A stretch of DNA of 62,831 bases, counting the filler, from Fonticula-like sp. SCN 57-25 (lineage: Eukaryota), in the NCBI GenBank assembly GCA_001724245.1. It is 8 parts of 8 records of this genome, joined end to end, with 100 filler letters (N's around TTAATTAATTAA, not from the genome) between each part and the next. Parts side by side here need not be neighbours in the genome. Positions count along the whole stretch, not along the records: positions 7,888 to 15,667 come from MEDX01000335.1; 7 more parts are not named here. The stretch is one strand, 5' to 3'. Below are positions 7,920 to 58,649 of the stretch, piece after piece. The first letter of the stretch is position 1. Each line of letters starts with the position of its first letter. The position numbers and the translations under genes were made by a program. Under the pieces are notes generated by a model, which had not been told where the DNA came from, did not search any database, and saw only the letters and a list, made by a program, of their open reading frames with translations.

Positions 7920-9932
7920 ATGGCCGAGCAGGTGAAGCAGCGCGCGTGTCTTATCGTGATCGACGGCTGGGGCGTCAGCGACGTCAAGGACGGCAACGGT
8001 GTGTCCCATATTTTTTCCCCTCTCTTTCGGTTGGTTTTTCCCCAAAGCTCGCTGGCTTACACGATGCGGTCCATTTAGCCGTCTACCATGCCAAGACCCC
8101 GGTGATGTCGGCCTTTGAAAAGAATGATCAGGTACGCCGCTCGCGCACTTGCTTGCCTGTTCTTTTGTTAACCCTATCCTCCTCTGTAGTGGACGACGCT
8201 TGCGGCGCACGGTCTTTCCGTCGGCCTCCCCGATGGCCTCATGGGCAACAGCGAGGTCGGTCACCTCAACGTCGGCGCCGGCCGCATTGTCTACCAGGAC
8301 ATTGTGCGGATTGATCTGGCTGTCCAGAGCGGCTCTCTCGCCTCGAACGCGACCCTGACGTCGGCCTTTGACCGCGCCAAGAGCGGCAACGGCCGCGTCC
8401 ACTTCCTCGGCCTTGTCTCGGATGGCGGCGTCCACAGCCACATCAACCACCTGCTCGCCCTCATGGACGCGGCCAAGGCGGCCAGCGTCCCCAACGCCTT
8501 TGTCCACTTTTTCGCCGACGGTCGCGACACCAAGCCGACGAGTGGCGGTGCGCCGCATGCTCGCACTCTTCTTTTCTCCTTGTTCTGACCTGTTTTGCCC
8601 TTCTTTTAGCCGGCTACGCCGAGCAGCTTGTCGGCCACCTCACCAAGATCGGCTACGGAAGCGTTGCCACGTGCACTGGGCGTTACTACGCGATGGACCG
8701 AGACAAGCGCTGGGAGCGCGTGCAGACGGCGTACGATGCGCTCGTTGACGGCAAGGGCGAGGCCGCGGACGATCTCGTCCAGGCCATCAAGAAGCGCTAC
8801 GCCGAGAACGAGACGGACGAGTTCCTCAAGCCGATCATCCTCAACCGCAACGGAACCATCCAGGGTGCGTTTCGTTTTATGCGGGGCGGAAAGGGGGGCT
8901 ATACTTGGCCAAGTCTTCCCTTTTACTGGTTGCTCACTCTTTGCCGCCAGACGGCGACACGCTGATCTTCTTCAACTACCGCTCGGACCGCATGCGCGAG
9001 ATCGTGCAGGCCTTTGGCATCCCCCCGTCGCCCTTTGCGACCCCCGTGACGGAGCGCAAGAACCTGTCCATCAGCAGCATGACGCGCTACAAGGGCGACT
9101 TCCCCTTCCCGGTCCTCTTTGAGGCGCAGTCCATGGACAACGTCCTCGCCGAGTGGCTCGCCAAGAAGAGCATCCCGCAGTACCACGTGGCAGGTGCGTG
9201 TAATGATGTCGACTGTCGCATTTACTTCTATTCGCATCCCAATGCTGACTACTGTTGATTGGCAGAGACTGAAAAGTACGCTCATGTGACGTTCTTCTTC
9301 AACGGCGGTACCGAGCGCGAGTTCCCCCTCGAGGTCCGCAAGGTCGTCCCCTCTCCCAAGGTCGCGACGTACGACCTCGAGCCCGCCATGAGCGCTATCG
9401 AAGTCGCGCGCGAGGTGGCGTCGGGCATTGCTGGCGGTGCTTACCCGTTCATCATGTGCAACTTTGCGCCGCCGGACATGGTTGGTCACACTGGCCAGTT
9501 TGACCGCGCCGTCCTCGGTGTGGAGGCCACAGGTGCGCTAGCTTTGCTGTTCTCGCACCGAGGCTAAAATGTTTTGTAGATGAGGCCATTGGTATCATTG
9601 CCGACGCCTGCAGGGCGCACGGCTACGTGCTGTTCGTCACTGCCGACCACGGCAACGCCGAGCAGATGTACAGCGAGACCGGCGGGCCGCACACGGCGCA
9701 CACCTGCAACCCGGGTGCGTGCTCGCTGCCTTTCCCTTTTCTTTTCTCATTCGATTGGCACTGACAATGAGGGGTAACAGTGCCGTTTGTCATGATGTCG
9801 GCTGACAACAAGTACAAGTTTGACCACGCCATTCCCAACCCCAAGCTTGCCGACTGCGCCCCCACCATCCTCGACGTGATGGGTCTCGACATCCCCAAGG
9901 AGATGGAGGGAAAGAGCCTGCTCCTCCACTAG
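7920..9932 (+). CDS. gpmI: 2,3-bisphosphoglycerate-independent phosphoglycerate mutase (iPGM), about 8 exons
   Basis: [109 protein letters not shown]. Confidence 0.96.
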
Positions 9933-10456: not shown

Positions 10457-10892
10457 GGTCACTTTGTTCGCTTCGTGGTCTTGTCTCGTTTGTTGAAATC
10501 TGTAGCTACATGGCTAGGTAGTGCGCCGATGCCGCTGACTGTTTAGGCGTTATATGCTTTGTGAGAAACGCAGTGGGATCACTGCTGTGACATAATATAT
10601 TTATACCAGCTCATTTAACGGGTCTCGCTGATGGGGTAGGGGTGACGTTGCCACCAGGTCCAACGATACCTGAATGTTACACGAAAGAAAAGCGGACCAC
10701 CGCACATCACCAGCAAATAACCAACATGATTTGGTTGTAGTGAGCCCTTTCTTTGTTGCTCTGGTGTGTGATATGTGCGCTCTCGTGCTCTCATTTGCGT
10801 TGCACCTTGGTCTTTGGTCTCTCTAGTTCCTCTTCTGATTATCTTCTGATTCGACTGATTTGACTGATTGGACCGAACCCACCGCAGCCAAG

Positions 10893-11282
10893 ATGGACGC
10901 AATCACAAAGTACATTGTGTCCAGCAAGGTCAAGTCCATGACCGGAGCCATGGGCTTTGACGACGACGAGGACGAGGAGGAGCAGCAGAAGAAGGAGCAG
11001 TCCAGAACGGTACGCCTCTTTCCTAGTGGGGAAAACCCTAGTTTGACGCGCTTGCCACAGCAAACGAAGGAGGAGATTGAGCGCGACCGCATCGCCGCGG
11101 AGCAGGCGGAGGCGAAGCGCCGCGAAAAGCACGAGGCGCGCCGCGAGGAGATGAAGAAGAAGCACGACGAGCTTCGCGACCGCTATAACCTCAAGGGCGC
11201 CCCTGGAACGACAAAGTACGCCGCGACACCCGGCAGTCCGACAACGCCAAAGGAGGAGGACAAGAACTGCGTCATTTTTTGA
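10893..11282 (+). CDS. Complexin-like protein (112 aa) with C-terminal CaaX box, 2 exons
   Basis: N-terminal MDAITKYIVSSKVKSMTGAMG, acidic linker, accessory/central helix ending ELRDRYNLK (cf. complexin IRDKYGIK/FRDKYRL), C-terminal CVIF. In-frame 51-nt intron 11010-11060. Confidence 0.78.
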   Translation: MDAITKYIVSSKVKSMTGAMGFDDDEDEEEQQKKEQSRTVRLFPSGENPSLTRLPQQTKEEIERDRIAAEQAEAKRREKHEARREEMKKKHDELRDRYNLKGAPGTTKYAATPGSPTTPKEEDKNCVIF

Positions 11283-11437
11283 GCGACGGCGGTGCCCGCA
11301 CTCTTTTCGCATCCAACTCTCCTTCTATCTATGCTCTAGTTTCGCTTTCGCTCTTGTAGTGTCTTTCCGTGTCCCTTTTGTGTACAATCCCTTCGGCGAT
11401 CAATGCAACAATGTCATATTCGTAAACGTCATTTTTC

Positions 11438-12261
11438 TTACATGAAATCGTCGTCGAGGTCGCGGCCGCGGTTGGACGCGTTGCTTGTGACGCGGCCAAG
11501 GATGGCGAGCTCGCTCATTTTCTTCTCGCTGTTGGCCGCGGCTTCCTCCAGGCGAGCTAAGCGGTCGAGTGAGTGTCAACGCCGGCGGTCCACATTGAGC
11601 CGTACCCTTCTCAGCGGCGCGCTCAGCAGCGGCGGCCTCGCGGCGCGCGCGCACCTCAGCAAGGCGCTTAAGGTCCGACTTTTCCTGCATCGCCCTCGCC
11701 GCATCGCTGCGCCGGTCGTACTCCGCCTGCTCGCTACACGGAACATGTCAGCAAAAAAAGCAATGTGCCAATGGCGTACCGAGGAGAAAGCTTCTTGACG
11801 GGGCGCCCGCCAGACGGGGCAGCGCCTCCGCGCCCCCTGCGTGCAGCGGCAGGGACACCGGCGGCGCGGTTGGCCGAGCTCGGTCCGCTTTCGCTGTCGC
11901 TGCTGTCACTGTCACTGTCATCACTGCTGCTATCATCGCTGCTGCTGTCATCGCTGCTGCTGTCGTCGCTGCTGCTGCTTCCGTCAGCCGCGGACGCAGG
12001 CGCCTTCTTCGCCTTGGCGACCGGGGCGGCCACCTTCTGCTCGGTCTCGCTCGAGGATGAGTCGTCCTCGCTGTCGGACGGCGGCATGTCCACCTTGCGA
12101 ACAATAAAACGATCCTCCATTTCCTCCTGGCTCATAGGGCCGCTGTAGCGTCCCGAGCTCCCCCCTCCGCGCCCTCCACGTGAAGCAGACTTTCCGCGGG
12201 ACGATGGCGCGCCACGGCTGCCACCGCGCCCACCCTTGGAGCGATCATCGTCGCGGGCCAT
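11438..12261 (-). CDS. PP28/PDAP1 (HASPP28)-like phosphoprotein, 3 exons
   Basis: RGG-rich N-terminus, DMPPSDSEDD plus Ser/Asp tract, then KLSPR...EKSDLKRLAEVRARREAAAAER, which resembles the PP28 motif ADLARLAxIRxxRE. Confidence 0.65.
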
Positions 12262-31519: not shown

Positions 31520-33809
31520 ATGCCCGTCGGCGACGAGTTGAGTGTCTCGGGCATCGCGCCAAAGTGGAACGTGCAGCAGTACGCGAGCGTGCCGACGAGC
31601 GTCTGGAAGACGAGCGGCGGCCGGCGGATGCGCTGGTAGATTGGCTCGCCGCGCGCTTCGGCGGCAGCATCATGTTTCTATCGGTAGAAAGGGTGAGGAA
31701 AATAGGAAATGGGCCAATGGGGGCGCACGTCAATGATGAGCTGGCGGCGGAGAAGGTCGATTTGGTCGGCGAGCGTGTCGCGTTCGGCAGCAAAGATTTC
31801 GCCGTGGTGGTTCATGTACGCGTGGCACTGCTCAAAGGCGCCAAGGCGGTGCAGCGGCTACACGCGGTCAGTCAAGAAAAGCAAAAAAATATTTATGGCG
31901 CACGTCGGAGAGGCGGTAGCAGCGGCTCAGGCGAAGAAGGCCTTCGTCGTAGAGGCGGCCGACGGCTAGCAAAAGCCGCGACATTTCATCAAATTCATAC
32001 TTTTTGCGGTAATATTCTGCGGGAAAATATGAGGAAAGGACCAATAGGAAAGCTTTACGTACGTAGAAGAGCAGTGACGGCGGCCGGTCGCGTGCTCATG
32101 ACGCTGGCAAACCTCTTGTACTTTGACGTCCGCTATCACAACTGTCAGCACAAAAATCATTCACAAATCAACAACGAACCTGTAGATAGAGGCTGGCCTC
32201 GAGTATGGCGTCGCTGTAATTGCACGTAATTGAATAGTCTAGCATCTCGAGCTTTTCCCCGAAATCGCGAATGCGGCCAAACTCGTAGCTGCCGCCGCTC
32301 ATGAAGCGGTCAATGATTTCAATAGGGCTTAGCGTGGCCGGATTCTCTTCGCGCAGCTTTTTTATCTTTTTCTTTAGCAACGCATTCTCAGCTAATAAAA
32401 AAATGGTTAGAAGAGGAGCAGCAAGTGACTTGTGCGTACAAAGGACAGAGTCGATGTAACCGACCACGTGGGGAGGAAGAGCGTCGGCGTCGATCGAGGC
32501 GGCGCGCAGCATTGCCGACGTCGCGTCGATGGTCGGCTGGGACGCGCCGAGCACGGTCGATGCGGCAGACGCATTGGAACGGCGTGGCGGCGCCTCATTA
32601 GGCAAAGGCGATGCAGCAACAACAGCAGCAGCTGAAGAAGATGATGCAGCAGCAGCAGATGATGATGATGCAGCGGCTGAAGCAGATGATGATGCAGCAG
32701 ATGTCGCCGGTAGCGGTGACAGCGGCGAGATCATTGATGCAGGTCTCGGCGGCTGAGGTGGCGGCTGCGCCGCAGGCACCGCCATCGACATTGGCCGCTG
32801 CGCCGGTGCGCCTGCCTTTGCCGCTGGCGCAAACTCTGTCTGCGGCGATTCCATGAGCGACTCGTAGCTCGGCAGGATGGGCCGCGGCTTGGACGGCAGC
32901 GGCGGGGGCGGCGCGTCAGGATCATCGAATGGATTTGTGCTGGAAGAGGCGTTCAATGGGTCCTTGACGGCTGGAGCACTCGACCGCGCCGCGCTGATTG
33001 GCGTGCTAGGTTCACGAGGGCTTTCAAATGGGTTGGGGATTGGCTGGTCGTCGTCGAACGGGGTGCTGACTGGCCGGTTGTCATTCGGATTCTCGAACGG
33101 GTTGGGGATCGGCTCTTCAGTTGGGCTCTCGAACGGGTTGCTGCCGGGCGCAGGCGCCTTGCCTGCCGCGGCGCGGGAGACTGGAACAGCGCGAGGAGGT
33201 GCAGGCGGTGCGGCACGAGCGGGTGCAGGAGGAGCGCTGCTCGGCTCGCCAAAGGGAGTGGGCCCGGACGATGCCACTGCAGGTGACGCCGGTGCGTCGT
33301 CAAAGGGGTTCAGCGAGGATCCGCTCGATGAAGAAGATGCGCGAGCGGGCGTCGCGGGCGCCTTTGCCGCTGCGCCGGAAAAGTACATTGCAAGAAAAGA
33401 TCCGCTTGCAGGTGCCTCGGCGGGGGCGGCAGGGGAAGGGGCAGCGGGGGATGGGGCCGCCGAGGCCGAAGCAGGAGCAGCCGCGGCAGAAGAGGGAGAA
33501 GGGGCGACGGAAGGGCGCATGAGCGGCGCGGCGCTGTTGCCGCCTATCACTTCCCAGTTCTCGTTCGAGTTGGCTTCGGCGCCGCTGTCAATGTTGTCGA
33601 CCAGCAGATCACACTACGCATGGTCAGTCACGAGCACGCCGGTCCCTCGAGCGCACCTCCTCCATCTCGATGACCGCGTCGGCCTCCTGGACGTTGGTTC
33701 GCTCGCGCAGCAGCGCTATATAGTCGCCATCGTCTGACCTGGCGCCTGGTACGCCGGCCGCGCCGCGGCGGAACGAGCTTCCCGAGGCCAAGTTGGAGAA
33801 GGCGCTCAT
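31520..33809 (-). CDS. VIPAS39/SPE-39 (Vps16B)-like protein with NPF-rich N-terminal extension, 3' truncated
   Basis: Spliced SYEFGRIRDFGEKLEMLDYSITCNYSDAILEASLYLQ-RTSKYKRFASVMSTRPAAV resembles VIPAS39 YSLERFRSLQDKLQLLEEAV...NVITAVLIFLKRTL. Five NPF and two TPF motifs lie upstream. Confidence 0.62.
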
Positions 33810-34603
33810 CCCCGTCCGTTCACTTCGGCGACGATTGTGTTCGTTTGGTTTTGCGGCGGGAAATCTCCCCCAGTCCACCCCAGACTCTGCTCCCGCTATC
33901 GACCAATCAGCAATTCCGACGCAACAAATCGGCCATAAAAGTCACGTGACATTGGTGTGTTTTGATTGGCTAACCAGTCAAAGCCCAATTTTCACGCGAT
34001 TTGGTCCAGGCACCTAACCTACCCAAACCTACCAAAACGTACCAAGACGGACGCAAACCGACTTGCGTATCGGTTGATCGGCTGCCCGCGAAATTGTGGA
34101 AGTGACGGCCAAGAGCAGTTTTTTCCACCCCGGGACTTTCTACAACATCTGACCGTCAGGCGCCGCTCTCTTTTCCCAGCAGACGACGTCGGCAGTGCAG
34201 AAAAACACGCTTTAAAGAAGCAGAGCGCAGTATTTGCGTAGGCGACCGCGATTGTCGAGTTTTTTTGGGGAGGGTACGCACCACGTCATAGGTTGCGGGG
34301 GGATCGGGCGTGTTGTGGCGATGGGGTTGGCGGAAAGGGATGCGGCTGGGTGGACCGCGGGGATAGCCTTGTATCGTTGTGGCTTGCTGGTTAATATGGG
34401 CTTGTGCGGATATTTTATATCATTTGCATTGTTTTATACTAATCTTGGTCAATTCTGCAGCTCTGTTGGTGCGTTTTTCCTACCAGAATCGCTGGTGGTA
34501 TTGGCGATCCGAGGCAGATCCTTGCCGCCCTCTCTTCCTTTCGAGTGTGGCGCGTCCGTTATCGGTGCTCCACTGAACCAGAGAGCGCCGCTATCCCTGT
34601 GTG

Positions 34604-37600
34604 ATGGCATACGTGCTTAACGGTGTCCAATCGAGCAGTACTAGGAATAATAGCAGCGGCGGCGGAGTTGGCGCAGTAGGTAGCCAATTTACGCCCGCGC
34701 ACTCGCTTCTCAAAGTCGAGCAACCCTTTTCTTCTTCTCTTTCTCCCGCTACAGTCTTTGGTGATCTTGCATTGGTCCCCGAGTCGCCCGACGACGCCTT
34801 GTCGCCGCACTCGTCGCCGTACCTCTCCGACTCGAGCCCACTAGCGCATCTCGAGGAGGGCGACATGGCCACGGGCAGCTCCGGCTCGGGCGCCGACGCC
34901 GCGTTCCGCTTTGACGGCGCGTCACCAAACATTTTTACGCCGAGCGAGCAGCGCTACTTTAGCGACTTTCTCGATCAGCTGGCTAACAACGACGAGGCGC
35001 GCGTGATGCCCGCCTTGGACGGCACCTTTCTGCACCCCATGGGCCAGATGAGCGGCACCTCGCCGTTCCGCATGCCGCAGGCAGACATTTCGACCGCGCA
35101 GCACACGGCTTACGACGACCGCAGCGGCAGCCAGTTTGACCTCCACATGCAGGCGCACTGGCAGCAGCAGCAGCAACAGCAACAGCAGCTTCTCCAGCAG
35201 CAGCAGCACCTGCAGCGCCACGCGGCGCCGCCGTCGTCGGTGAACCCCTACGCCATGTCGGACCGCTCCATGCTCGGCACGACGCAAATGTCGCAGGTGT
35301 CGGGGCAGGTCGGCCCAGCGACGCCGGCGCCCAGGAACCAGCGCAGGACACCCGCGCGCGCCCCCGGTGGAGGTGTCAGCAAGGCCGGGCGCGTGCGCTC
35401 GGGCAGCGTCGGCGGGAATGGAACGCCGCCGCTGAACCCCGCGGCAATTGCGTCCGCGGCCGCCGCTGCCGCCGCCGCATCGAATGCCGCCGGCGGGCAG
35501 ACACCGCTCGGTCTCCCCATCCACCCTGTGCTGCAGAGCAATGTAAAGCCATCGCTGGCTCGCGGCGCGCGGCCGCAAAAGATGGAGGACGAGGACGAGG
35601 ATGATGATCTGAGCGACGACGCCCTGCGCAACAGCCAGCGCGAGCTGCTGACCGAGGAGGAGAAGCGCCAGAACCACATCAACTCTGAGAAGAAGCGCCG
35701 CAACAATATCCGCCAGGCCTTCAAGACGATGACGGACATTATCCCGTCGCTCAACGGCACAAATTACAGCAAGGCGACCATCCTCAACAAGGCGAACGAG
35801 TACCTCGTCCACCTCAAGGAGCGCAACAGCGCGCTCAGCTCGGAGGTGTACCGCCTTCGCGAGATGCTCGAGAAGCGCGGGATCGACTCTGCCGGCGCGT
35901 CCGCCGCTCCCGCCGACCCGCACGCGTCCGCCGCCCACAACGCCGCCGCCGTGCCGGCGAGCAGCGGGAGCACGCCCGAGGTGTCGTGGTCGCGCGGCAC
36001 GCCCGCCTTTTCGGACGAGGTCAAGATCTTTGTCGTGTGGTCGTGCTTCCTCATGGCCATGGTGAACCCGATCACGGGCGGCGGCGCGTCGGGCGATGAC
36101 ACTTCGTCGTCCGAGGTCGGCCGCTCGCTGCAGTCTGTCGCTGCGCCGTCGAGCTTTGACGCCGCGTGGCCCCTGCTGTCGGCGTTTGCGTCGTGGTTCT
36201 GGGTGGCCCGCTGGCTGTTTGTCGCGCTTGCGCTGTACATGTCGTTGACGCTCGACTACTTTGTCAAGCCCAACAGCAAGGCGTCGCAGCACGCGCGCGA
36301 GTACCGCCTCAAGGGCGAGAAGGAGCCGTTCTTCCGCCGCGAGCAGTACTTTTTGTCTGCGCTCTCGTCGCTCGGCAGCCCGCTGCCGTCGACCAACGTC
36401 GGCCTTGTGATGAGCCTCGTGTGGCAGGCGTCGCGGCAGCTTCTTCACCTTCTCGTGTTTGGCCGCGTCGTTGAGGCGTTCCTCGTGCGCGTCCGCCGCG
36501 TCGAGCCGTCCGTGTTTGAGCTGGCGCACAACTTTCACGCGCTTGCTCACCAGTACATTTCCTCTGAAGCCGTGCCGCTCAAGGCGTGGGTGAGCCTTCT
36601 TCGCGCGCTCAACCTTGCCGAGTGCACGTCGGCCGACAACAACCCGCTGCTCGCCGAGATCTACTCGTCCATCTCGTTCCAGGTCCAGTTCCACCTGCCC
36701 AACCTGTGGGTCTTCAAGCGTCTGGCGCGCCACTACCGCGCGCGCGCCGACGCGATCCGTGCGCGCGCCGACTGCTCGACCAAGACGCTCGGCTACGTGT
36801 CGATGCACGATGCCTTTGAAAAGATGGCCAAGGGCCACCTGACCGAGGCGGCCGTCGAGCTGCGCAACGTTGGGCGGCTCTTTATGGACTGTGGCCGCCA
36901 CCGCTCCGCCTGGGAGGTGCTCGTCTTTTACAGCCTCGCGCGCCACATTCGCGGCGAGGCGACCGAAACGCTCAAGGCCGCCGCCGAGATCCGCGACGTC
37001 TTTTCGGTGCACATTCGCGAGATGGCCCGCGGTGACGACGCGGAGAACGGCGACGTTGACCCCGACACGCGCAACATTCTCGTGAGCCAGCTGCTGTGGT
37101 CCGACATGCTGAGCTGCCTCGCGCTGCTCGAGACGCTCGACGTCGGGCAGGCCGCCGCGGTGCACGCGCGCGCCGCCGACCTTGCCAAGATGTGCAGATA
37201 CGACGAGGCAAAGTGGAGCGAGAGCGGGCACCTGCAGCAGGTCGTCTACCACGCGCTCACCACTGCCGTCCGCGGGCGGCAGGGCGACACCAAGCAGATG
37301 CTGGCCGAGGCGACCGAGGCGATCAAGCTGTTTGACAATGTGCAGCAGCCAATGTTCTTTGGCGTGTCGTACCTCGCGTACGTCCTCGTCGCCGACGCGC
37401 TCGTCGAGGCGTGGCTGCGCGCCGTCGACACGGCCGACACGGACGACGTGCCCACCATCGCCGCCATGCTCGCCGCCGTCTCAAGTCACCTCGCCTCCTT
37501 TACAAGCAACTTTGCGTTTGCCGAGCCGCGCTGCCTCACGGTCGCCGGCGTCGCCGAATGCCTCGCGGCAAAGGACGCCGCCACGACAGAGAGCGGCCGC

Positions 37601-37810
37601 GACAAGCTCAGGCGCGCAGCGGCCGCCGGCATGCGGCTCGACATGCCGCTCGACGCCGCGTACGCCGCCTTCTTTTACGAGCGGTTCAGCGACACGCCAG
37701 AGCTCGAGCAGATCACGCAGGCGAGGAGCGTGTGCCACAAATTGGGCGCAGAGCACAAGGCAAACGTCATCGAGCTCTATCTGCACACCAACTTTGGCAA
37801 GCGCTTCTAA
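34604..37810 (+). CDS. SREBP-like membrane-bound bHLH-ZIP transcription factor (start uncertain)
   Basis: bHLH KRQNHINSEKKRRNNIR...SKATILNKANEYL; TM1 ending MVNPI; luminal GRSLQ; TM2; SREBP-type C-terminal motifs RQLLHLLVFGR and ALNLAEC...LAEIY. Confidence 0.8.
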   Translation: MAYVLNGVQSSSTRNNSSGGGVGAVGSQFTPAHSLLKVEQPFSSSLSPATVFGDLALVPESPDDALSPHSSPYLSDSSPLAHLEEGDMATGSSGSGADAAFRFDGASPNIFTPSEQRYFSDFLDQLANNDEARVMPALDGTFLHPMGQMSGTSPFRMPQADISTAQHTAYDDRSGSQFDLHMQAHWQQQQQQQQQLLQQQQHLQRHAAPPSSVNPYAMSDRSMLGTTQMSQVSGQVGPATPAPRNQRRTPARAPGGGVSKAGRVRSGSVGGNGTPPLNPAAIASAAAAAAAASNAAGGQTPLGLPIHPVLQSNVKPSLARGARPQKMEDEDEDDDLSDDALRNSQRELLTEEEKRQNHINSEKKRRNNIRQAFKTMTDIIPSLNGTNYSKATILNKANEYLVHLKERNSALSSEVYRLREMLEKRGIDSAGASAAPADPHASAAHNAAAVPASSGSTPEVSWSRGTPAFSDEVKIFVVWSCFLMAMVNPITGGGASGDDTSSSEVGRSLQSVAAPSSFDAAWPLLSAFASWFWVARWLFVALALYMSLTLDYFVKPNSKASQHAREYRLKGEKEPFFRREQYFLSALSSLGSPLPSTNVGLVMSLVWQASRQLLHLLVFGRVVEAFLVRVRRVEPSVFELAHNFHALAHQYISSEAVPLKAWVSLLRALNLAECTSADNNPLLAEIYSSISFQVQFHLPNLWVFKRLARHYRARADAIRARADCSTKTLGYVSMHDAFEKMAKGHLTEAAVELRNVGRLFMDCGRHRSAWEVLVFYSLARHIRGEATETLKAAAEIRDVFSVHIREMARGDDAENGDVDPDTRNILVSQLLWSDMLSCLALLETLDVGQAAAVHARAADLAKMCRYDEAKWSESGHLQQVVYHALTTAVRGRQGDTKQMLAEATEAIKLFDNVQQPMFFGVSYLAYVLVADALVEAWLRAVDTADTDDVPTIAAMLAAVSSHLASFTSNFAFAEPRCLTVAGVAECLAAKDAATTESGRDKLRRAAAAGMRLDMPLDAAYAAFFYERFSDTPELEQITQARSVCHKLGAEHKANVIELYLHTNFGKRF

Positions 37811-38868: not shown

Positions 38869-39387
38869 ACCACCCCTCCTATAGAAATCCCACCAAAGCA
38901 ACACCCTGTCATCCAGCAGCAACGGCACAGACGTGCGGATGCAGCGCCAGACAAGCAGGACGCCGCCGGATGGCGATGCTAGTCGATGGATGCCTCGTGC
39001 ATCCGACCGAGTTCTCCGTGGACCCAAACCGCCATCCGACCCCATAATCATCCAAACCACACACAACACAACACGTTCCCGTCCCTCTCCCCGGATGCCG
39101 CAGCAGGCCAGAGGCCCCGCTTCGCCAAAAGTAACGCACTGTCCTGCTTGGGGGCCATCGTCGATGGATGCGGCAGTAAAAGAGACCGAACGAACAGAGT
39201 GCCAGCAGCACAAAATCCACCCGGATCGTCTCTATGAGAGACGATTTCATGAAATGTTTGAAATGATGTGTCAGCGTTACGNNNNNNNNNNNNNNNNNNN
39301 NNNNNNNNNNNNNNNNNNNNNNNNNTTAATTAATTAANNNNNNNNNNNNNNNNNNNNNNNNNNNNNNNNNNNNNNNNNNNNTGATTT

Positions 39388-39461
39388 TGGGCCGGGGGAG
39401 AATCGAACTCTCGACCTCCAGATTATGAGACTGGCGCTCTAACCGACTGAGCTACCGGCCC
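39388..39461 (-). tRNA. tRNA-Met (CAT), elongator type
   Basis: GGGCCGG/CCGGCCC acceptor stem, GCTC/GAGC D-arm, anticodon loop CTCATAA with U31-U39, GTTCGAT T-loop, no encoded CCA. Confidence 0.96.
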
Positions 39462-39669
39462 ATAACAATAGGCTAGAAATAAAGTCTTTTATTTGTTTGA
39501 TTATGTTGGACTTGAATTTCTTTGAACTTCAATCCCTACTCTGACCTTTTGCATAGAAAAGACAGTCGCAGGCCACAAGCAGCCAAACAGGGTAGATCAC
39601 AAGAAAAATTCACAGATAAAATAATAGTAAAAGAATATTTATTTTAACAATTCGCAGGCAAATTCGAAC

Positions 39670-42277: not shown

Positions 42278-44766
42278 ATGTCGAACCAGAATGATATGAC
42301 TCCAAAGGAGGAGCAGGAGTCGCTCCTCGAGTCTGCGTTCGCCGTCGTCAAGGACCAGTCGTTCCTGATGAAGCGCTCGCTCGATGCGGGCAAGCTCATG
42401 GACGCGCTCAAGTACTGCTCGACGATGCTGTCGGAGCTGCGCACGGGCCTCCTGTCGCCCAAGTACTACTACCAGCTCTGTGCGTGCCGCTCAATCCCCT
42501 CGATGCCGTGCTGACCGATCTGTAGACATTATGATCTTTGACCAGCTTCGCCACCTGGAGGCGTTCCTGATTGAGGAGCACAAGCGCGGCAAGAAGCTGA
42601 GCGATCTGTACGAGCTTGTTCAGTACGCCGGCAACATTCTGCCGCGCCTGTATCTCCTCGTGACCGTCGGTGCCGTCTACCTTGAGACGCACGAGGCCCC
42701 CACGCGCGAGATCCTCACCGACATGGTGGAGATGTGCCGCGGCGTGCAGCACCCCACCCGCGGCCTGTTCCTCCGCAACTACCTTTTGCAGATGACCAAG
42801 AACAAGCTCCCCGATGTCTCGACGGGCAACACGTGCGCCTACTTTTTTTCTTTTTGGCAGCGATCTAACCCTTCTGCCCCTTTGCAGTCTCGGCAACGTG
42901 AACGACTCTATTCAGTTTGTGCTTGTCAACTTTGTTGAGATGAACAAGCTGTGGGTCCGCATGCAGCACCAGGGCCACTCCAAGGACCGCGAGCGCCGCG
43001 AGTCTGAGCGCCGCGAGCTGCGCATTCTGGTCGGCACCAACCTTGTGCGCCTCAGCCAGCTTGAGGGCGTCGACCTCTTGGTGTACAAGAAGACTGTCCT
43101 CCCCGCCGTCCTTGAGCAGATTGTGTCGTGCAAGGACCACATTGCGCAGGAGTACCTGATGGAGTGCGTCATCCAGGTGTTCCACGACGAGCTGCACCTG
43201 CGCACCCTGCAGCCGTTCCTTGACGCCTGCAGCAAGCTGCAGAAGAACGTCAATGTCAAGGGCATCATCATCACGCTGATTGACCGCCTGACGCGCTTCT
43301 CGGAGGACGTTGGCATCCCGTCCGACATTCCCCTTTTCGAGATCTTTTCTACGCAGATCGCTGCGCTCATCGAGGCGCGCTCGGACATGCCGATCGCGGA
43401 CGTTGTTGCGCTGCAGGTGTCGCTGCTCAACCTGAGCATCAAGTGCAACCCCGACAGCCTGGAGAGCACGAACAAGGTCCTCGCGATCACGTACAACAAG
43501 CTGCAGAGCTCGCCCGACAACAAGGCGCTCGACAAGACCAACACGGCGGCCGGCAAGCAGCTCATCCGCCTGCTCACAATCTGCGTGTCCAACTACAACG
43601 ACGTGCTCACGCTCCTCAATCTCGAGCACTACGCGCTCCTGCTGCCCTTCCTGTCGTACGACGGCCGCAAGCAGGTCGCCAACGAGATCATCCAGAATGC
43701 CCTCACGAACGGCACGCTCATCCCCGACGCTGCGCTCGCCAGCAAGCTGCTCGACCTCATCTCGCCGCTCGTGCGCGACGAGGAGGACCAGCCGAGCTCG
43801 CGCGACGAGGACGACTTTGTCACCGAGCAGCACGCCGTGGCGCGCCTGGCGCACCTCTTTGCCAACCCCGTGCTCGACGGCCAGTACCAGCTGCTCGTCG
43901 CGATCCGCAAGCACTTTGGCGCCGGCGGCGACCGCATCGTGTACACGCTGCCGCCGCTCATCATCGCCTCGCTGCGCCTCGCCGTGCAGTACTACCGCGC
44001 GCGCGAGAGCGACGAGAGCTGGGAGAAGAAGATCAATAAGGTGTTCCAGTTTTCGTTACAGACGACGCTCGCGCTCGTCAAGTCGGGCCACACAGACGTT
44101 GCGCTGCGCCTCTTTTTGCAATGCGCGCAGGCGGCCGACATTTGCGGCATCGAGTCGATCGCGTACGAGTTTGTGACGCAGTCGTTCCTGCTGTACGAGG
44201 AGAACGTTGCCGAGTCCAAGGCGCAGATCAACGCCATCATCCTGCTCGTCGGCACGCTACAGTCGATGCGCGTGTTTGGCGCCGAGAATGCCGACACGCT
44301 GACGACAAAGTGCGCGCTGCTCGCGACCAAGCTGCTGCGCCGCCCCGACCAGTGCGCCGCCGTGCAGCTCTGCTCGCACCTGTTTTGGCAGACGGCGCAG
44401 CCCGGCCGCGCCGCGCAGCCGCACCACAATGACGGCAAGCGCGTGCTCGAGTGCCTGCAGCGCTCGCTCAAGATCGCCGACGCGTGCATCGACCCGCCGC
44501 TCATCAAGGAGCAGCTCTTTGTCGACATCCTCAACCGCTACCTCTACTTTTTCGACAAGCGCAACGAGGCGGTCACGGTAAAGTACGTCAACGGACTCAT
44601 CGACCTCACCAACACGAGCGTCATGAACCTCGACGCGGTCGACGGCGCCGACGCAATCACCAAGTACTTTAAGAATACCGTGTCGTTCATCGCCTGGAAG
44701 AAGGAGTTCCCCAGCAGCGAGGGGCAGTCGTTCGCCGATATCGACACGAGCATCGTCCGCCTGTAG
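42278..44766 (+). CDS. VPS35: Retromer subunit VPS35, 3 coding exons
   Basis: [83 protein letters not shown]. Confidence 0.98.
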
Positions 44767-50801: not shown

Positions 50802-53800
50802 ATGGCGCAGGCGCCGGATAGCTCGGTGTACTTTTCATCATTCGAGCAGCAGCAGACGCGAGAATTTCGGAGTCATTTTGCGAGTCAAATATCCTCGAAC
50901 AGCACGAGTCCAGAGGCGATCAAGCTGCTTGTTGACCAGTTTTCGTACCTGTTAGTCAGGGAGGATAGCTACGCGCATGTCCTCGCCGATTCGGTTTCTC
51001 CCGCCTGCTGGCATACAACATTCTCGTCCTTTTACGAGTACAACTCGCAGCTAGATCCAAACTCGACTCCGCCGCTGCCCTCCCGGCCGCCTCCCTCGAT
51101 TCGCAAGCCCTCTCGCCTTCAGCGTCTCTTCAACCCCTCTCTGAGCGCCTCCTCCTCCTCCTCCTCCCTCTCATCCTCATCGAGCTCGTCAGTCGTATCG
51201 AGTCCGTCGCTCCCGGTCGGCTGCAAGATCAATGCCGATTTTTGTCTCTCGCGCACTCCTCTTTTCGGCCTCCAGTATTACACGGGGATGCTGAGCAAGA
51301 TGTCTCTGCGCCTGTCAGATCTCAACTGCGACATGTACGAGGCGCTTGCAAAGAATCACGCGTCGCGGCCCTTTGCGACGCACCTCATGCTCCACCTTGT
51401 TGCCATTCCTCTTCCCCTGCTGCAGCAAGCCGAAATTGGCTCGGCTCATAGCGCGACGGTGGGCGAGGGCACCAAGGGGGCGGCCAACCTGCGCCTTCTC
51501 TTCTCGCACCTTTGCTCTGTCCTGGTCAACTTTCTCGGCCGTGTTTCGGTTGACCGCGAAGCTGGCCACGCGCCGGACGCCGTCGAGTCGTCGCTTGACG
51601 GCGCGTCGTCGTTAATCGTCGAGTCGATCCGCCGCCTTTCCGAGCTTCTTTCGTCGGGCGCGCCGCTTGCACCCGCGCTGCGCGTCAACGCTACGCACCT
51701 TGCCGCCGTGCTGCTGTCGACGCTCGCTGCTTTGCCCGCGCGGAAAAACGCGGCGAGCAAGGCGCCCAACCTTGACAGGAGCGTGCTCGACCTTGTCCTG
51801 ACGGCCTCTGGCGACGCCCCGTGCATCGCGCACCTGCAAGCGACCAAGGTGTCGTCTCACCACGTAGTACCGCTGCTTGTGAGCCCGTTCCGCACAGGCG
51901 TGATGCTGGGCTTTTTGCTTCTCGCGCGCTGCCCGCCGACCGAGGAGCTGCGCTCGCTTGACCTTTTGCGTCGGCACGCCGAGCGGGGCATCAACCACCT
52001 GGGCGCGGGCGCCAAGGAGCGCGCGCAGTTTGGCGTTGCTATCATTAATGTGGCCGTGCCGTGCGTGCAGCACACTGACGCGAACGCCGTCGCGGGAGCG
52101 GTGCTCGACGCCATCGACCTCGTGCGCGACAAGTTTCCCGCGCTCGCTGCGGCGCTGCGGGACTGCCCGCCGGCCGTGCACGCCGACGCGGTGGCCGAAT
52201 ACCTTCTTGAGGCGCCGCGGCCGGCGGCGGACACGCGCGAGTCGGAAGAGGCCGAGAACCAGGCGCGGCAGATTGAGGAGGCGTTTGCGGCGCTCGAGCT
52301 GCAAAAGGCGGCGGCGCGGCGGGATCTTGCCGACGACGTTGCCGAGCCGACATTTGTGCTCAAGCTTCACCCGCGGACTGACCTGATGTTTGAGGAGGAG
52401 ATGTCGGCGTACCTGGTGGTGCGGCGGCAGTTTGCCAACGCGCAGCTGGACCTCGGGGAGCGCGCGGTGCTCGAAGCCCAGTGCATCGACGCCGCCATGA
52501 ACGGCCTCATGACGATCACGTACGGGTGGTATGTTGCGCTCTTGTCGACGGAGCAGCAGTCGGTGCCGCACAGCTTTCACGCGCTCCTCGCGAGGCTGCT
52601 CCCGTCGCTCCTCGTCTCGCTCTTTTCCGAATTTAGCAAGTTTGAGCAGGAGGTCTTGCACGACGCTATCCGGCCGCAGCTCTCGGACCTCGTCGCCGCG
52701 ATCGGCTGCAGGGACGGCGAGTGGACGACAAACTCGTTCTTGGAGTGCATGTCTGAGCTGTGGGGCTGCGCAAAGCAGTCCCTGATGAACGCGGCGCGGG
52801 CGCCCGGGACGCTGTACAACTTGGTCGACGCGCTCGTGGCGCTCTCGGTCAACGAAGAAGGCCAGGGCATCCTTCTTGGGTTTGCGCTTAGCATCGAGGA
52901 GGAAGAGTCCATGGAGGTCATTCGGCGCATCCAGGCGTCCACGCCGGTCGTGGTCAAGAAGCAGCCGGACGAGTCGGTCGAGCGGGAATACGACGAGTTC
53001 TTCAAGTCGTACCAGTACTACCCGGTGCACTGCGTGCCGCCGGCGCCGCCGGCGCCCGCCGAGCCGGTGCCCGAGGGCACCACACAATTGCAGCACTTTC
53101 TCAGCGGCTACCGGCGCGACCACCCGCGCATCGACAACCCGCTGCCGATGATCATCACGCCTACGAACCTGGTCGAGTCGTCGATGCAGTCCGTCGGCGC
53201 GCTCTCCGCCGAGCGGCTGCGCATCAGCACGCTGCGCGTGACGTTTGTGAGCGCCGAGGGCGAGGAGCAGGCGGGCATCGACCAGGGCGGCCTGCGCCGC
53301 ACGTGGATCGGCACGCTCGCGCCGCAGATGGCGCAGACGGGCACCATGCTCGGGCTGCTGAGCAGCACCGAGGAGGGGCAGCTCTTCATCCACCCGCTCG
53401 CGGATCTCATGCCAGAGGCGGAGGCGTACTTTACCCTGCTCGGCCGCGTCATCGGCCTCAGCATCACCAACGCGAACGACGCCATGCTCTTCCCGGTCGG
53501 CCTCGCGGCGCCCATGTACTCGCTCCTGCTCGGCCGCCCGCTGCGGACCGCGGATCACGACCTCTTGCAGGAGAACTTTTTGCGGGGCATGAAGCAGACA
53601 ATCTCTTCTATGGTGTCAAGCGGGGTGAGCGCCGAGGACCTCGCGCTCTACGACTCGCACGCGGTCGACCTCGGGGAGGACAAGCGCGCGCAGCTGTCGG
53701 CGCTAAAGGGCCGCTTTGGCAGCGGCGCAGCGCCAGAGTCCGAAGACATCGTCGACAAGAACGACGAGTGGCTCGCGCGCAACATCAAGATTGAGGGCAA

Positions 53801-55186: not shown

Positions 55187-55725
55187 TTGTCGATTTAGCG
55201 TTGTGGCGTTTTGTGGGGTCAGTTAAGATAAAATTTAGATAATAATGGCTGATATAGGTAGCCACATGCGTATTTTGTTACTGTGCTTAAAGGCGTTTGC
55301 GTTTGCTATAAGAAAAATTTTAAGCATATAACCTAAAGACGTGTGATCCTATCTGGGATATATGAACAGTAGTAGGTACTTTGCTTTTAAAGACTATTTG
55401 CAAATGGGCAGCGGCGCGAAAGGAAGCGGCTGAAAGATGGAAAAGAACAAAATGATACTCCTTAGTATTTCTCAAGCGAGCATGCTAAAATCGGCTAGAA
55501 AGGCATGTGAATGTCCATGTAGATATATGTCAAAATGTCAACATGTCATTGCAGATCCTCTTGCAGTACATTTTTAATGATAAAAATCTTTAGTAGGTAT
55601 ATATGTACTGCCTTACAGACATTATGCTCATAAGGCGGACGCTCTACATAACTGTTGTCGCTACACTGTCAAGCAGATGATGCTACATTGAGGTCGCCAA
55701 TGCATATGTTGACCCCGCGACGATC

Positions 55726-57138
55726 ATGGTAGCCGCCAAAGTGGTTCCGCTTGTAAAGTACAGTTCCATGGCTTCATTGCCCTGTTATATATTGTCTAAA
55801 GTCTGCACTTTCAAGGCTGGTTGGCCGTCTGCTCCCTTTCCCGCCCTCACAGATTCAACGGGGGGATCGCGTAAATCTACCTTGGAATGCCACGAGGGGT
55901 TAAAAAACAAGCTACCTATTAAGGATGACTTTGCACTGACTTTGCAGGTCATCGCTTCAAAAGTTTGCAGCAGGGTTGACGCCGCCGCCGCTGTTTTGCA
56001 GCGGGATTGGCCCAGCGGTGTTCTTCAGGTAATGATCGTAGCTGCACTACAACCGTTATTTGTTTGGTTCAGAAGCTTGCTGATGGGCGGAGAGGGGGTG
56101 AGGGCATCAGTTATTGTTGCCATCGCCATGGTTGTCTTGTCCTACTTGGTGCTCCAGATGGTGTCGGCCGGAGTCGCACAGGTGTACTCTGACAGTCTGA
56201 CCTTGTTTGGCGTCCCCGGTGCTGTTCTCTCAGCCATCCGCCAAGGCGCGGGTGCATCATTCTCGTGGGTTGGCTCGTCCGTCGCGCAGGCGACCGAATC
56301 TGCAGCGACTGGCTCGCTGGAGGCGGGGCGTGCGTTTGGCAAGGCGGTTATCAACGGCGTCGCCGTTGATCGGCTCCCCGATGTGGAGGGAGGCGATGTG
56401 GCAATTTCGCATTCCATAGTGGAGGCTGCAAGCGAGGGGGCGTATCTCAAAGTTGTGGACAGAATGGAATCGCAATGGCGAAAGATTTCGCCAATCTACG
56501 ATACGATGCGCGGCCTCGAGCTTTCCAACAAGCTTTCCAACGGGTTCGTCACCCAGCCCATGGAGAGCGTCGGCACAAAGATCGGTTTGGTCAAAAGTAG
56601 TTGGAGCGAGTGCAATTTAGACGCATCGAGCACCTTTGCCGACCTCGTAATTTTGTTTTCGACTCTTGCGGGAGACCTGACCGAGAAGCGCTATATTACT
56701 GTGGTCGAATTAATGTCGGATTCTTTGGGCGATCTGCATCAAATGTGCGGAAAGTCACTTATTCGGAGCAAGGAATTGGAAACCTCTGTGAGCGCCCTTC
56801 GAGAGTCGTTGTCAACAGCAAAAACTCAACTGACCGAAGCGGGCGAGCTTAAACGGGGCTACATCTATCAGAATTCGGATGCGGTCGCGATTAAAGACCT
56901 GCAGCAGTCGATTAGAGAGATTGACGATGGCGCTCGTTCGATTGTGGGTGAAGTGGACCGTGTTCTGCACAAAATCAGCCATTTCAAGCGCAAGGTTCAG
57001 GCTAGCAGTCGCGACCTCGACATTTCCTTCAAAATGTTGGCAAACCTCATTGGCGGTGTCTGCGCAAACTTTGAGTCGCATCCCAACACGGACGTCGGCC
57101 GGGCGTGTTCCAAGCACTTTGTTTCCAAATCTTCATAG
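55726..57138 (+). CDS. Orphan membrane-anchored coiled-coil protein A (true start may be about 56083)
   Basis: Long ORF with hydrophobic VIVAIAMVVLSYLVL, heptad-rich helical body and clear paralogy to 59106-59960. Confidence 0.75.
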   Translation: MVAAKVVPLVKYSSMASLPCYILSKVCTFKAGWPSAPFPALTDSTGGSRKSTLECHEGLKNKLPIKDDFALTLQVIASKVCSRVDAAAAVLQRDWPSGVLQVMIVAALQPLFVWFRSLLMGGEGVRASVIVAIAMVVLSYLVLQMVSAGVAQVYSDSLTLFGVPGAVLSAIRQGAGASFSWVGSSVAQATESAATGSLEAGRAFGKAVINGVAVDRLPDVEGGDVAISHSIVEAASEGAYLKVVDRMESQWRKISPIYDTMRGLELSNKLSNGFVTQPMESVGTKIGLVKSSWSECNLDASSTFADLVILFSTLAGDLTEKRYITVVELMSDSLGDLHQMCGKSLIRSKELETSVSALRESLSTAKTQLTEAGELKRGYIYQNSDAVAIKDLQQSIREIDDGARSIVGEVDRVLHKISHFKRKVQASSRDLDISFKMLANLIGGVCANFESHPNTDVGRACSKHFVSKSS

Positions 57139-57289: not shown

Positions 57290-58649
57290 TCAAAGGTCGT
57301 TGCCAGTGCTCGCATCCTCTTGCTTGGCCTTGGCGACGAGCGTGTCCAATGAAGCATAGATTTTCTCGATGGTTTGCGTCATCTGCTCCAGATCCGCAGG
57401 CAGCACAATCATCTCTTTGAACAGTCGTTCAGAGTTGACCCGCTGAAAGTTGGACATGTTCGGGTACCGCGCAGGGCTAAAGTGGTTGCCAACAGTGGTC
57501 ATTGTGCGGGAGATCTCGCTAAAGTTGGCCTTTGCGGCGGCCATTGCGACCCTGAGACCCATGCGCAAACCACCTTCCTCCTTCAATTTGGTCTCACAGT
57601 ACGTCACTAAACGAAACAATAAGCAACATAACTCTAGAAATGCGTATGCTGCTTGCGTACCATACTGTTGGTGACGAATACAATCGGCGAGGTTCTCCAC
57701 AGTCGCAGCATATGTCGAAGCAACATCGGTGGTAGTGACGATGGTTGCCCCGAGACTCTTGACCAAGGCAGCCTCTTGCTTCTTGTTTGGCGAAATGGAG
57801 TATTCCTCGACGACGTTCGAAAGGCTATCGAGGTAGTCTTTCGAACGGAGCTTGATCACCTGGTCGGTAAGAGCATCCCTGAACGACATGACTTGGCCGT
57901 ACGCGATGGCATCGCGGTTGCGGGTAACGGAAGGGTAAGTTGCGTGTTTCGGGCCGGCGGGGCCGCGGGCATTGCCCATAAGGGAGCCCGCGCCAAGCAC
58001 AAGTAGGACGAGGAGGATCAACACTATTTCGCGCCAATACGAGTTGGTGGACAAAGACTGCCGCGCTTTCTGCAGGCGAGTAGTCGGCGGCACGCCCTGC
58101 ACGTCTGTGTCCGGCACGCCGGCCTTGTCAGTATCCCACACAAAGAAGGGCGTCTCCCGAGTCGCGGGCACTCCCGCCTTCTTCAAAATGTCCTCGCACA
58201 AAGCTGTGATGCTGCGTAACATATCCGTGAGGCTCAACTGGCCTTGAGGGTCACCGTGCGCCCTTGTCGGCGAGCCTAAAGATTGGCCGGGCGCGTATTG
58301 ATCGACCTGTTGCAACGCACCGTCGAGTTTCTTAAAGATAGCTGCAACATCTAGAAGTGTAAAGTGAGAACACCACATACCGTGATAGCCGCATAATAAA
58401 CATACCAGCCTTTTTAATTGGCAGCATCTTCTTCGCCTCATCCGTAAACGTGGTAACCATCGAGATTACCACAAGACGCTTGGTGTTGAACGCAGCCACA
58501 TCAGAATCGCTGGCCGCGGCCAAGTCTCCTATGGCCGTATCAACATAGCGAGCGAGCAGTCCAATATCGATCTGTTGGACGTGGCCCGAAGCCACCCTGG
58601 GCAGTTCCTGCGAGGCAGTTGAGGCTCTTGCTCTCCGCGTCGTCGCCAT
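57290..58649 (-). CDS. Orphan single-pass membrane helical protein C, probably 3 exons
   Basis: MATTRRARAS exon, GT-AG intron about 58352-58405, TM EIVLILLVLLVLGAG, helical C-terminal region. Confidence 0.65.

Follow-up and report, generated by a model that had tools for sequence, protein, structure and literature searches.

The locus at positions 10893..11282 (+) of the window (the whole stretch of 62,831 nucleotides, filler included, that was analysed) encodes, as judged from its sequence, a hitherto undescribed, divergent complexin-family protein with a CaaX box. Few regulators set stimulus-controlled exocytosis apart from the constitutive form; complexins are among them, and for this reason the phyletic range of the family dates regulated secretion. 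The reading in which the encoded protein is a complexin-family, prenyl-anchored regulator of SNAREs is given a probability of roughly 78%; within it, the assignment to the family is more secure than the binding of SNAREs.

Read without splicing, the locus is a stop-free ORF of 129 aa. A GT..AG stretch of 51 nt (11010..11060 (+)), in frame and devoid of stop codons, lies within it, and splicing joins 39 and 73 codons into a 112-aa protein with CVIF at its C-terminus. Exon 1 (10893..11009 (+), 39 codons), whose ATG is in the context A(-3)/G(+4), accounts for the N-terminal motif of complexins (aa 1-21) and for the acidic stretch that follows it (aa 22-31); the intron, read from the sequence, is in phase 0, begins with GTACGC, ends with CACAG and carries a branch-like TTGAC whose A is located 15 nt from the 3' end; exon 2 (11061..11279 (+), 73 codons) specifies a long helix rich in charged residues, then a tail rich in Pro and Thr and finally the CaaX box, and is followed in the sequence by the stop codon TGA at 11280..11282 (+). 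This model bears out what a previous sequence-only reading of the DNA had proposed, namely a spliced protein of 112 aa ending in CVIF, a gene spanned as a whole by the coordinates 10893..11282 and an ORF track in which the 51-nt intron is hidden; in fact, ORF callers miss it because its length is a multiple of three and it contains no stop. A 51-mer that is in frame and has no stop would, as estimated by the analysts, arise by chance in about 1 case in 7.

Five lines of evidence indicate that the two-exon gene and its 51-nt intron are real. The GC3 is 0.85 in exon 1 and 0.80 in exon 2 versus 0.53 when the 51 nt are treated as coding. The window has four other mapped introns, of 46-86 nt, all of them starting with GTGCG and three of the four with a CTRAC-type branch site; two belong to the VPS35 gene (42480..42525, 46 nt, and 42833..42887, 55 nt) and were mapped by reading of the DNA and by tblastn of the VPS35 proteins of Capsaspora, Nk52 (Chromosphaera perkinsii, according to PMC5560861) and P0008 onto the window, and two belong to the gene of the cofactor-independent phosphoglycerate mutase, iPGM (8548..8609, 62 nt, and 8865..8950, 86 nt). 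On the Synaphin profile the exons abut, exon 1 covering positions 1-37 and exon 2 positions 36-78, so that the 17 residues encoded by the intron have no profile counterpart. Moreover, P0004, P0127, P0128 and P0129, which are relatives described below, show V-R (GTN CGN) at the same point, and the sequence beyond it diverges completely. It is decidedly unlikely that the 51 nt are retained and that the 129-aa read-through protein is the product or a regulated isoform: the 17 stop-free codons and the in-frame stretch that P0004 also reads through at the same place would agree with retention, but the drop in GC3, splice and branch motifs that are canonical for the window, and an insert with no counterpart in the profile and no conservation between relatives count against it, as do the readings of P0127, P0128 and P0129 past the same point, which differ and are not complexin-like. 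Both the protein collection and the ESM Atlas contain an entry identical to the 129-aa protein, and at the same position P0004 apparently also has an in-frame intron that is read through; similarity searches for the complexin family are therefore weakened by stored read-through proteins.

The gene is on the + strand. The GC content of the three codon positions in its frame (GC1/2/3 0.58/0.38/0.82) resembles that of VPS35 (0.60/0.34/0.90); the antisense ORF at 10842..11324 (-), of 161 aa, has values of 0.73/0.45/0.57, and the Pfam scan gave no family for it. Together with two other antisense shadow ORFs, 34925..37480 (-) of 852 aa and 51615..53615 (-) of 667 aa, it belongs to a set of frames lying opposite the complexin, bHLH and HECT genes, respectively; the 852-aa frame likewise gave no family in the Pfam scan, and the length of the shadow ORFs is due to the strong GC3 bias. 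On the same strand as these frames, the ORF of PP28, a casein kinase substrate phosphoprotein (11403..11747 (-)), converges on the complexin gene with about 120 nt between the stop codons.

The membership in the complexin family, already claimed from the sequence, is supported by the Synaphin/complexin HMM that had been proposed as a check. The searches used the read-through ORF or the single exons and not the spliced protein: the read-through ORF reached 39.9 bits on Pfam Synaphin PF05835, above the cut-off of 27 (E=6.3e-10, profile positions 1-78), and exon 1 (21.6 bits, E=2.9e-4) and exon 2 (16.9 bits, E=0.0077) each remained below the cut-off when taken alone, with DUF3824 ranking first for exon 2 at 18.9 bits. 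Synaphin was listed for all three pieces scanned, collinear on the profile (1-78, 1-37, 36-78), and the N-terminal motif, the end of the helix and the CaaX box are all found again in the relatives. The precomputed annotation of the protein collection already tags the read-through protein with PF05835. The three best clusters of look-alikes in the ESM Atlas are all complexins, with scores of 0.89, 0.81 and 0.80, which, being under 0.9, are a lead only by the tool's own rating. The best of them, a cnidarian-dominated cluster of 68 members that are 97% Synaphin, is the nearest by language-model features (192 of 256 in common) and its length of 111 aa nearly equals that of the spliced protein.

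As D, E, K and R account for 45% of the residues, a composition prone to spurious helix matches, it might be argued that an unrelated small, charged, low-complexity helical protein passes the Pfam threshold by composition, the more so as the acidic stretch of the same query led to matches at E<=0.001 with four long proteins and the language-model scores below 0.9 are leads only. Such a chance resemblance is very improbable, since exon 1 and exon 2 fall on neighbouring segments of a single profile in the expected order, the N-terminal motif, which is not charged, matches Synaphin in three separate sequences, the CaaX box and the helix end are conserved in P0004, and the charged PP28 ORF, scanned as a control, gave no Synaphin match at E<=10.

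The relatives of this complexin-family protein come from JGI, ENA and Logan records. An exhaustive phmmer search among 1.84 billion representatives at E<=0.001 gave six matches, corresponding to the protein itself, P0004 and four long proteins; P0004 (147 aa, 35% identity, E=9.2e-8) is the only complexin-sized match other than self. The motifs in common with P0004 are M-D-x-I-x-x-Y, then K-x-K-S, the acidic run, R-R-E-K, R-x-R-Y-x-L-x-G and the CaaX box; in particular, M1, D2, I4, Y7, K12, K14, the acidic run, R76 R77 E78 K79, R95, R97, Y98, L100, G102 and C126 V127 are invariant between the two. On the Synaphin profile P0004 scores only 10.8 bits (E=0.63). A profile built from the window protein and P0004 found five proteins at E<=10 among 2496 candidates and added P0127, P0128 and P0129 as homologues of exon 1; P0127 matches Synaphin positions 1-53 (24.3 bits, E=4.1e-5) and P0128 positions 1-40 (20.4 bits, E=6.5e-4), both below the cut-off of 27. 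The word-seeded search with the read-through ORF returned self only (1 of 21 candidates), and the scan of prokaryote genome contigs for complexin gave 601 pattern matches and no relatives. The four long proteins, P0002, P0003, P0005 and P0006, were rejected as homologues, each being matched repeatedly (8-12 stretches) via the acidic stretch (10956..10985), which draws compositional matches; by Pfam, two carry bacterial SdrD_B repeats and the other two belong to no family.

At the N-terminal end, the acidic linker described in the sequence-only reading was found again, with a net charge of -8 over spliced residues 22-31. The amphipathic character attributed there to the N-terminus is weak: residues 1-11 have a helical hydrophobic moment of 0.41, a value reached by 11% of shuffles, residues 1-18 one of 0.17, reached by 57%, and AlphaFold2, run on the read-through ORF, predicted no helix at the N-terminus.

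The AlphaFold2 model of the read-through ORF consists of one helix with disordered ends. This single long alpha-helix, assigned with DSSP, spans 11067..11192 (+), corresponding to read-through residues 59-100 and spliced residues 42-83, with a block pLDDT of 81-90. This is the known architecture of complexins, whose central helix is described in PMC5445133, and the predicted helix 42-83 is a candidate for the accessory and central (SNARE-binding) helix. The charged helix ending in LRDRYNLK, which had been noticed from the sequence, is recovered in the model, with LRDRYNL and then K at the end of the predicted helix; the motif (11172..11195 (+)) is aligned by phmmer to the squid synaphin residues I-R-D-K-Y-G-L-K. 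What the window protein has in common with squid synaphin A (PDB 1L4A chain E), a complexin helix solved on a SNARE complex, is R-R/K-E-K-H, close to where the central helix begins, and the R-D-(K/R)-Y-x-L-K end, whereas the middle of the helix differs; the alignment, in register over about 45 residues, is weak and not significant alone (E=3.2). In the phmmer searches against the PDB, squid synaphin appeared only at E=3.2 and 8.8, ranked third of three and second of two matches, and the profile of the window protein and P0004 found no complexin among its seven PDB matches at E<=10. As read from the alignment, which is in register at both ends, the spacing from R-E-E-M to R-D-R-Y is apparently 3 residues longer than in squid synaphin, so that the equivalents of several SNARE-contact arginines, whose positions are presumed from rat complexin-1, are uncertain.

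By its sequence, the central helix alone, the part that functionally defines the family, is not significantly complexin-like, and SNARE binding is for this reason only inferred. A protein that is related to complexins by descent, through its N-terminus and general layout, but no longer binds SNAREs, with a drifted central helix, a prenyl anchor and another partner, would account for this result, for the apparent difference in spacing and for a family signal that comes mostly from exon 1; it is nevertheless improbable, as P0004, despite 65% divergence, retains the end of the helix, which is the motif best conserved among complexins, and the alignment with squid synaphin is in register. Since the window protein and P0004 both keep this helix end, constraint on the same surface is argued, and the favoured reading is still that of a SNARE regulator. 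The Pfam scans of the window ORFs found no SNARE genes in the window.

The CaaX box CVIF (11268..11279 (+)), located directly before the stop codon, is a predicted prenylation signal; the sequence-only reading had claimed this motif, which is present at the exact C-terminus of the protein and is aligned with CVVM in P0004. The presence of F as the X residue is compatible with farnesyl or geranylgeranyl. With an identity of only 35% between the two proteins, the CaaX box that both retain is the best internal indication that attachment to a membrane matters. The tail, of about 25 residues, is Pro/Thr-rich with four prolines; AlphaFold2 predicts no helix after residue 100 (pLDDT 46-52), none of the best hydrophobic-moment windows lies past the helix end, in the tail, and, because no amphipathic helix is predicted there, the protein would be attached to membranes by its lipid anchor only.

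CaaX-anchored complexins occur in animals, as described in PMC5445133 and PMC13454271, and in the former a conserved amphipathic C-terminal region is reported even for CaaX complexins. The window protein is similar to these animal proteins (CPLX3/CPLX4 type and invertebrate isoforms) in its small size, N-terminal motif, helix ending in R-D-(K/R)-Y and CaaX box; in contrast, its Pro/Thr-rich tail of about 25 residues has no predicted amphipathic helix and its central helix is much more diverged. The X residue is M, Q or S in animal examples of CaaX complexins, unlike the F of the window protein.

Complexin was reported in the genomes of the unicellular Capsaspora owczarzaki and Monosiga brevicollis, and as apparently missing from Salpingoeca rosetta, by Burkhardt et al. 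2014 (PMC4137706); the Monosiga and Capsaspora complexins are also cited by Chen et al. 2026 (PMC13454271), who use Monosiga to argue that complexin arose earlier than synaptotagmin and who mention that Cpx3/4 have a CaaX anchor. These two species are unicellular relatives of animals, and the window gene is similar to theirs as a family gene in a unicellular organism, a comparison made from published reports; by VPS35 (52% identity with Capsaspora), the host is neither of the two. The single-sequence phmmer search at E<=0.001 listed no named animal, Monosiga or Capsaspora complexin and, because neither of the latter two appeared at this threshold in the exhaustive search, the window protein is considered distant from both. 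Yang et al. 2015 (EMBO Rep) are said to have described complexins in some non-metazoan unicellular organisms. In the literature searched, no report of complexin was found in Ichthyosporea, Corallochytrea, apusomonads, fungi or Amoebozoa, nor, more generally, outside animals, Monosiga and Capsaspora; domain databases may nevertheless contain proteins of this kind.

The window is eukaryotic and gene-dense, with a GC content of 53.6% and ordinary housekeeping genes, and the Pfam scans found no lineage-specific domains in it. Markers present in the window are VPS35, eIF3e, RPL18, RPL23A, an MRE11-like gene, TRAPPC10 and Mob1. The iPGM gene (8190..9564 (+)) has at least four exons separated by short introns; the distribution of iPGM in eukaryotes is patchy and the gene might help to place the host. 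A frame of 1077 aa (34577..37807 (+)) contains a bHLH-leucine-zipper that, among solved structures, is closest to Max and then to Myc (E=2.3e-11 to 1HLO), and this length is unusual for a protein with a Max-like domain. The only Rfam match in the window is a tRNA-Met (39387..39462 (-)) between the RPL23A and eIF3e genes; with Rfam and ARAGORN no rRNA was found in the window, the sole hit being the tRNA-Met. Three further long ORFs, at 55681..57135 (+), 32171..33613 (-) and 57293..58465 (-), are 485, 481 and 391 aa long, respectively, have no Pfam family at E<=1e-4 and may be either genes or shadow frames.

The position of the host was examined by means of VPS35, one of the markers suggested in the sequence-only reading. 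Among the best 120 of 2047 matches, self was followed by three further proteins at 65, 62 and 57% identity and then by Capsaspora (52%), Nk52 (51%), many animals (48-52%) and Balamuthia (49%); the same best 120 of 2047 included no named choanoflagellate, fungal or apusomonad VPS35. A quick tree was built from the spliced VPS35 of the window and 34 hand-picked matches, consisting of the three top ones, all the named non-animal ones and a spread of animals and other proteins; the removal of 15 rows nested in animals left 20 rows for a careful tree with Balamuthia as outgroup. In the careful tree the window and its three closest VPS35 proteins form a clade (support 100/100) that is sister to Nk52, Capsaspora and animals together (support 100/99). 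The AU test rejects a grouping of the window clade with Nk52 (p=1e-4), with Capsaspora (p=4e-5) or with Capsaspora and animals with Nk52 outside (p=5e-4), these results referring to one gene and to groups named after the tree was seen. Thus the suggested VPS35 tree, which covers a single gene and has no choanoflagellates, Corallochytrium, other ichthyosporeans, nucleariids, fungi or apusomonads, suggests a host outside Chromosphaera, Capsaspora and animals, and this single-gene placement is thinly sampled. On these sequence data the host seems to be neither an animal nor a choanoflagellate. Proteins of the host are present as identical entries in the ESM Atlas; the clusters obtained there for VPS35 were plant, fungal and arthropod and carried no taxonomic signal.

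Several named organisms were considered as the host and set aside. Thecamonas trahens (64.1%), Fonticula (67.9%) and Sphaeroforma (41.8%) differ in GC content from the 53.6% of the window, an argument that is only suggestive; Chromosphaera differs both in GC content (42.5%, again only suggestive) and in VPS35, which is 51% identical, and the VPS35 of Capsaspora is only 52% identical. Corallochytrium has 380 introns in 7,535 genes versus at least five introns in three genes of the window. A scan of prokaryote contigs with VPS35 found one locus (L001, 10001..12346, 43% identity over query residues 1-601), which is not a close relative; it lies on CBDCCT010000002.1, a 5.84-Mb contig titled Trueperaceae bacterium MAG that may be eukaryotic DNA under a bacterial name, because VPS35 is a eukaryotic retromer protein.

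As to the age of the family, the sequence-only reading had proposed an earlier origin of regulated secretion machinery if the organism lies outside Choanozoa. A deeper position of the host, below the split of Ichthyosporea, Filasterea and animals, is suggested by the VPS35 tree of one gene and few taxa; the novelty does not hold, as an origin of complexin before Choanozoa is not new once Capsaspora is already reported to have the gene. An origin deeper than Capsaspora is possible but unproven. The wider proposal, that the host lineage lies outside every characterised holozoan group sampled, as a deep holozoan or a non-holozoan opisthokont relative, and that a prenyl-anchored complexin pre-dates the Ichthyosporea/Filasterea/animal split and possibly Holozoa, is tentative and considered somewhat unlikely. 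If it were true, several lineages would have lost complexin, and its ancestral membrane tether would be the lipid anchor and not an amphipathic tail.

By analogy with animal complexins, the helix of the window protein would occupy the groove of the exocytic SNARE bundle as it assembles, and the N-terminal motif would help to drive fusion. The Cys of CVIF would be prenylated and the C-terminus successively trimmed and methylated, so as to hold the protein on the vesicle or plasma membrane. In a single-celled host, such a protein would likely speed or gate stimulus-dependent exocytosis and not synaptic release.

The gene may modestly widen the known range of complexin. With it, the family gains a clade of no fewer than three or four relatives, made up of the window organism, P0004 and the P0127/P0128/P0129 group, and on one marker this clade is placed outside Chromosphaera, Capsaspora and animals. 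The CaaX box, which is present in both members with a known C-terminus, would support an old, synaptotagmin-independent and membrane-tethered role of complexin.
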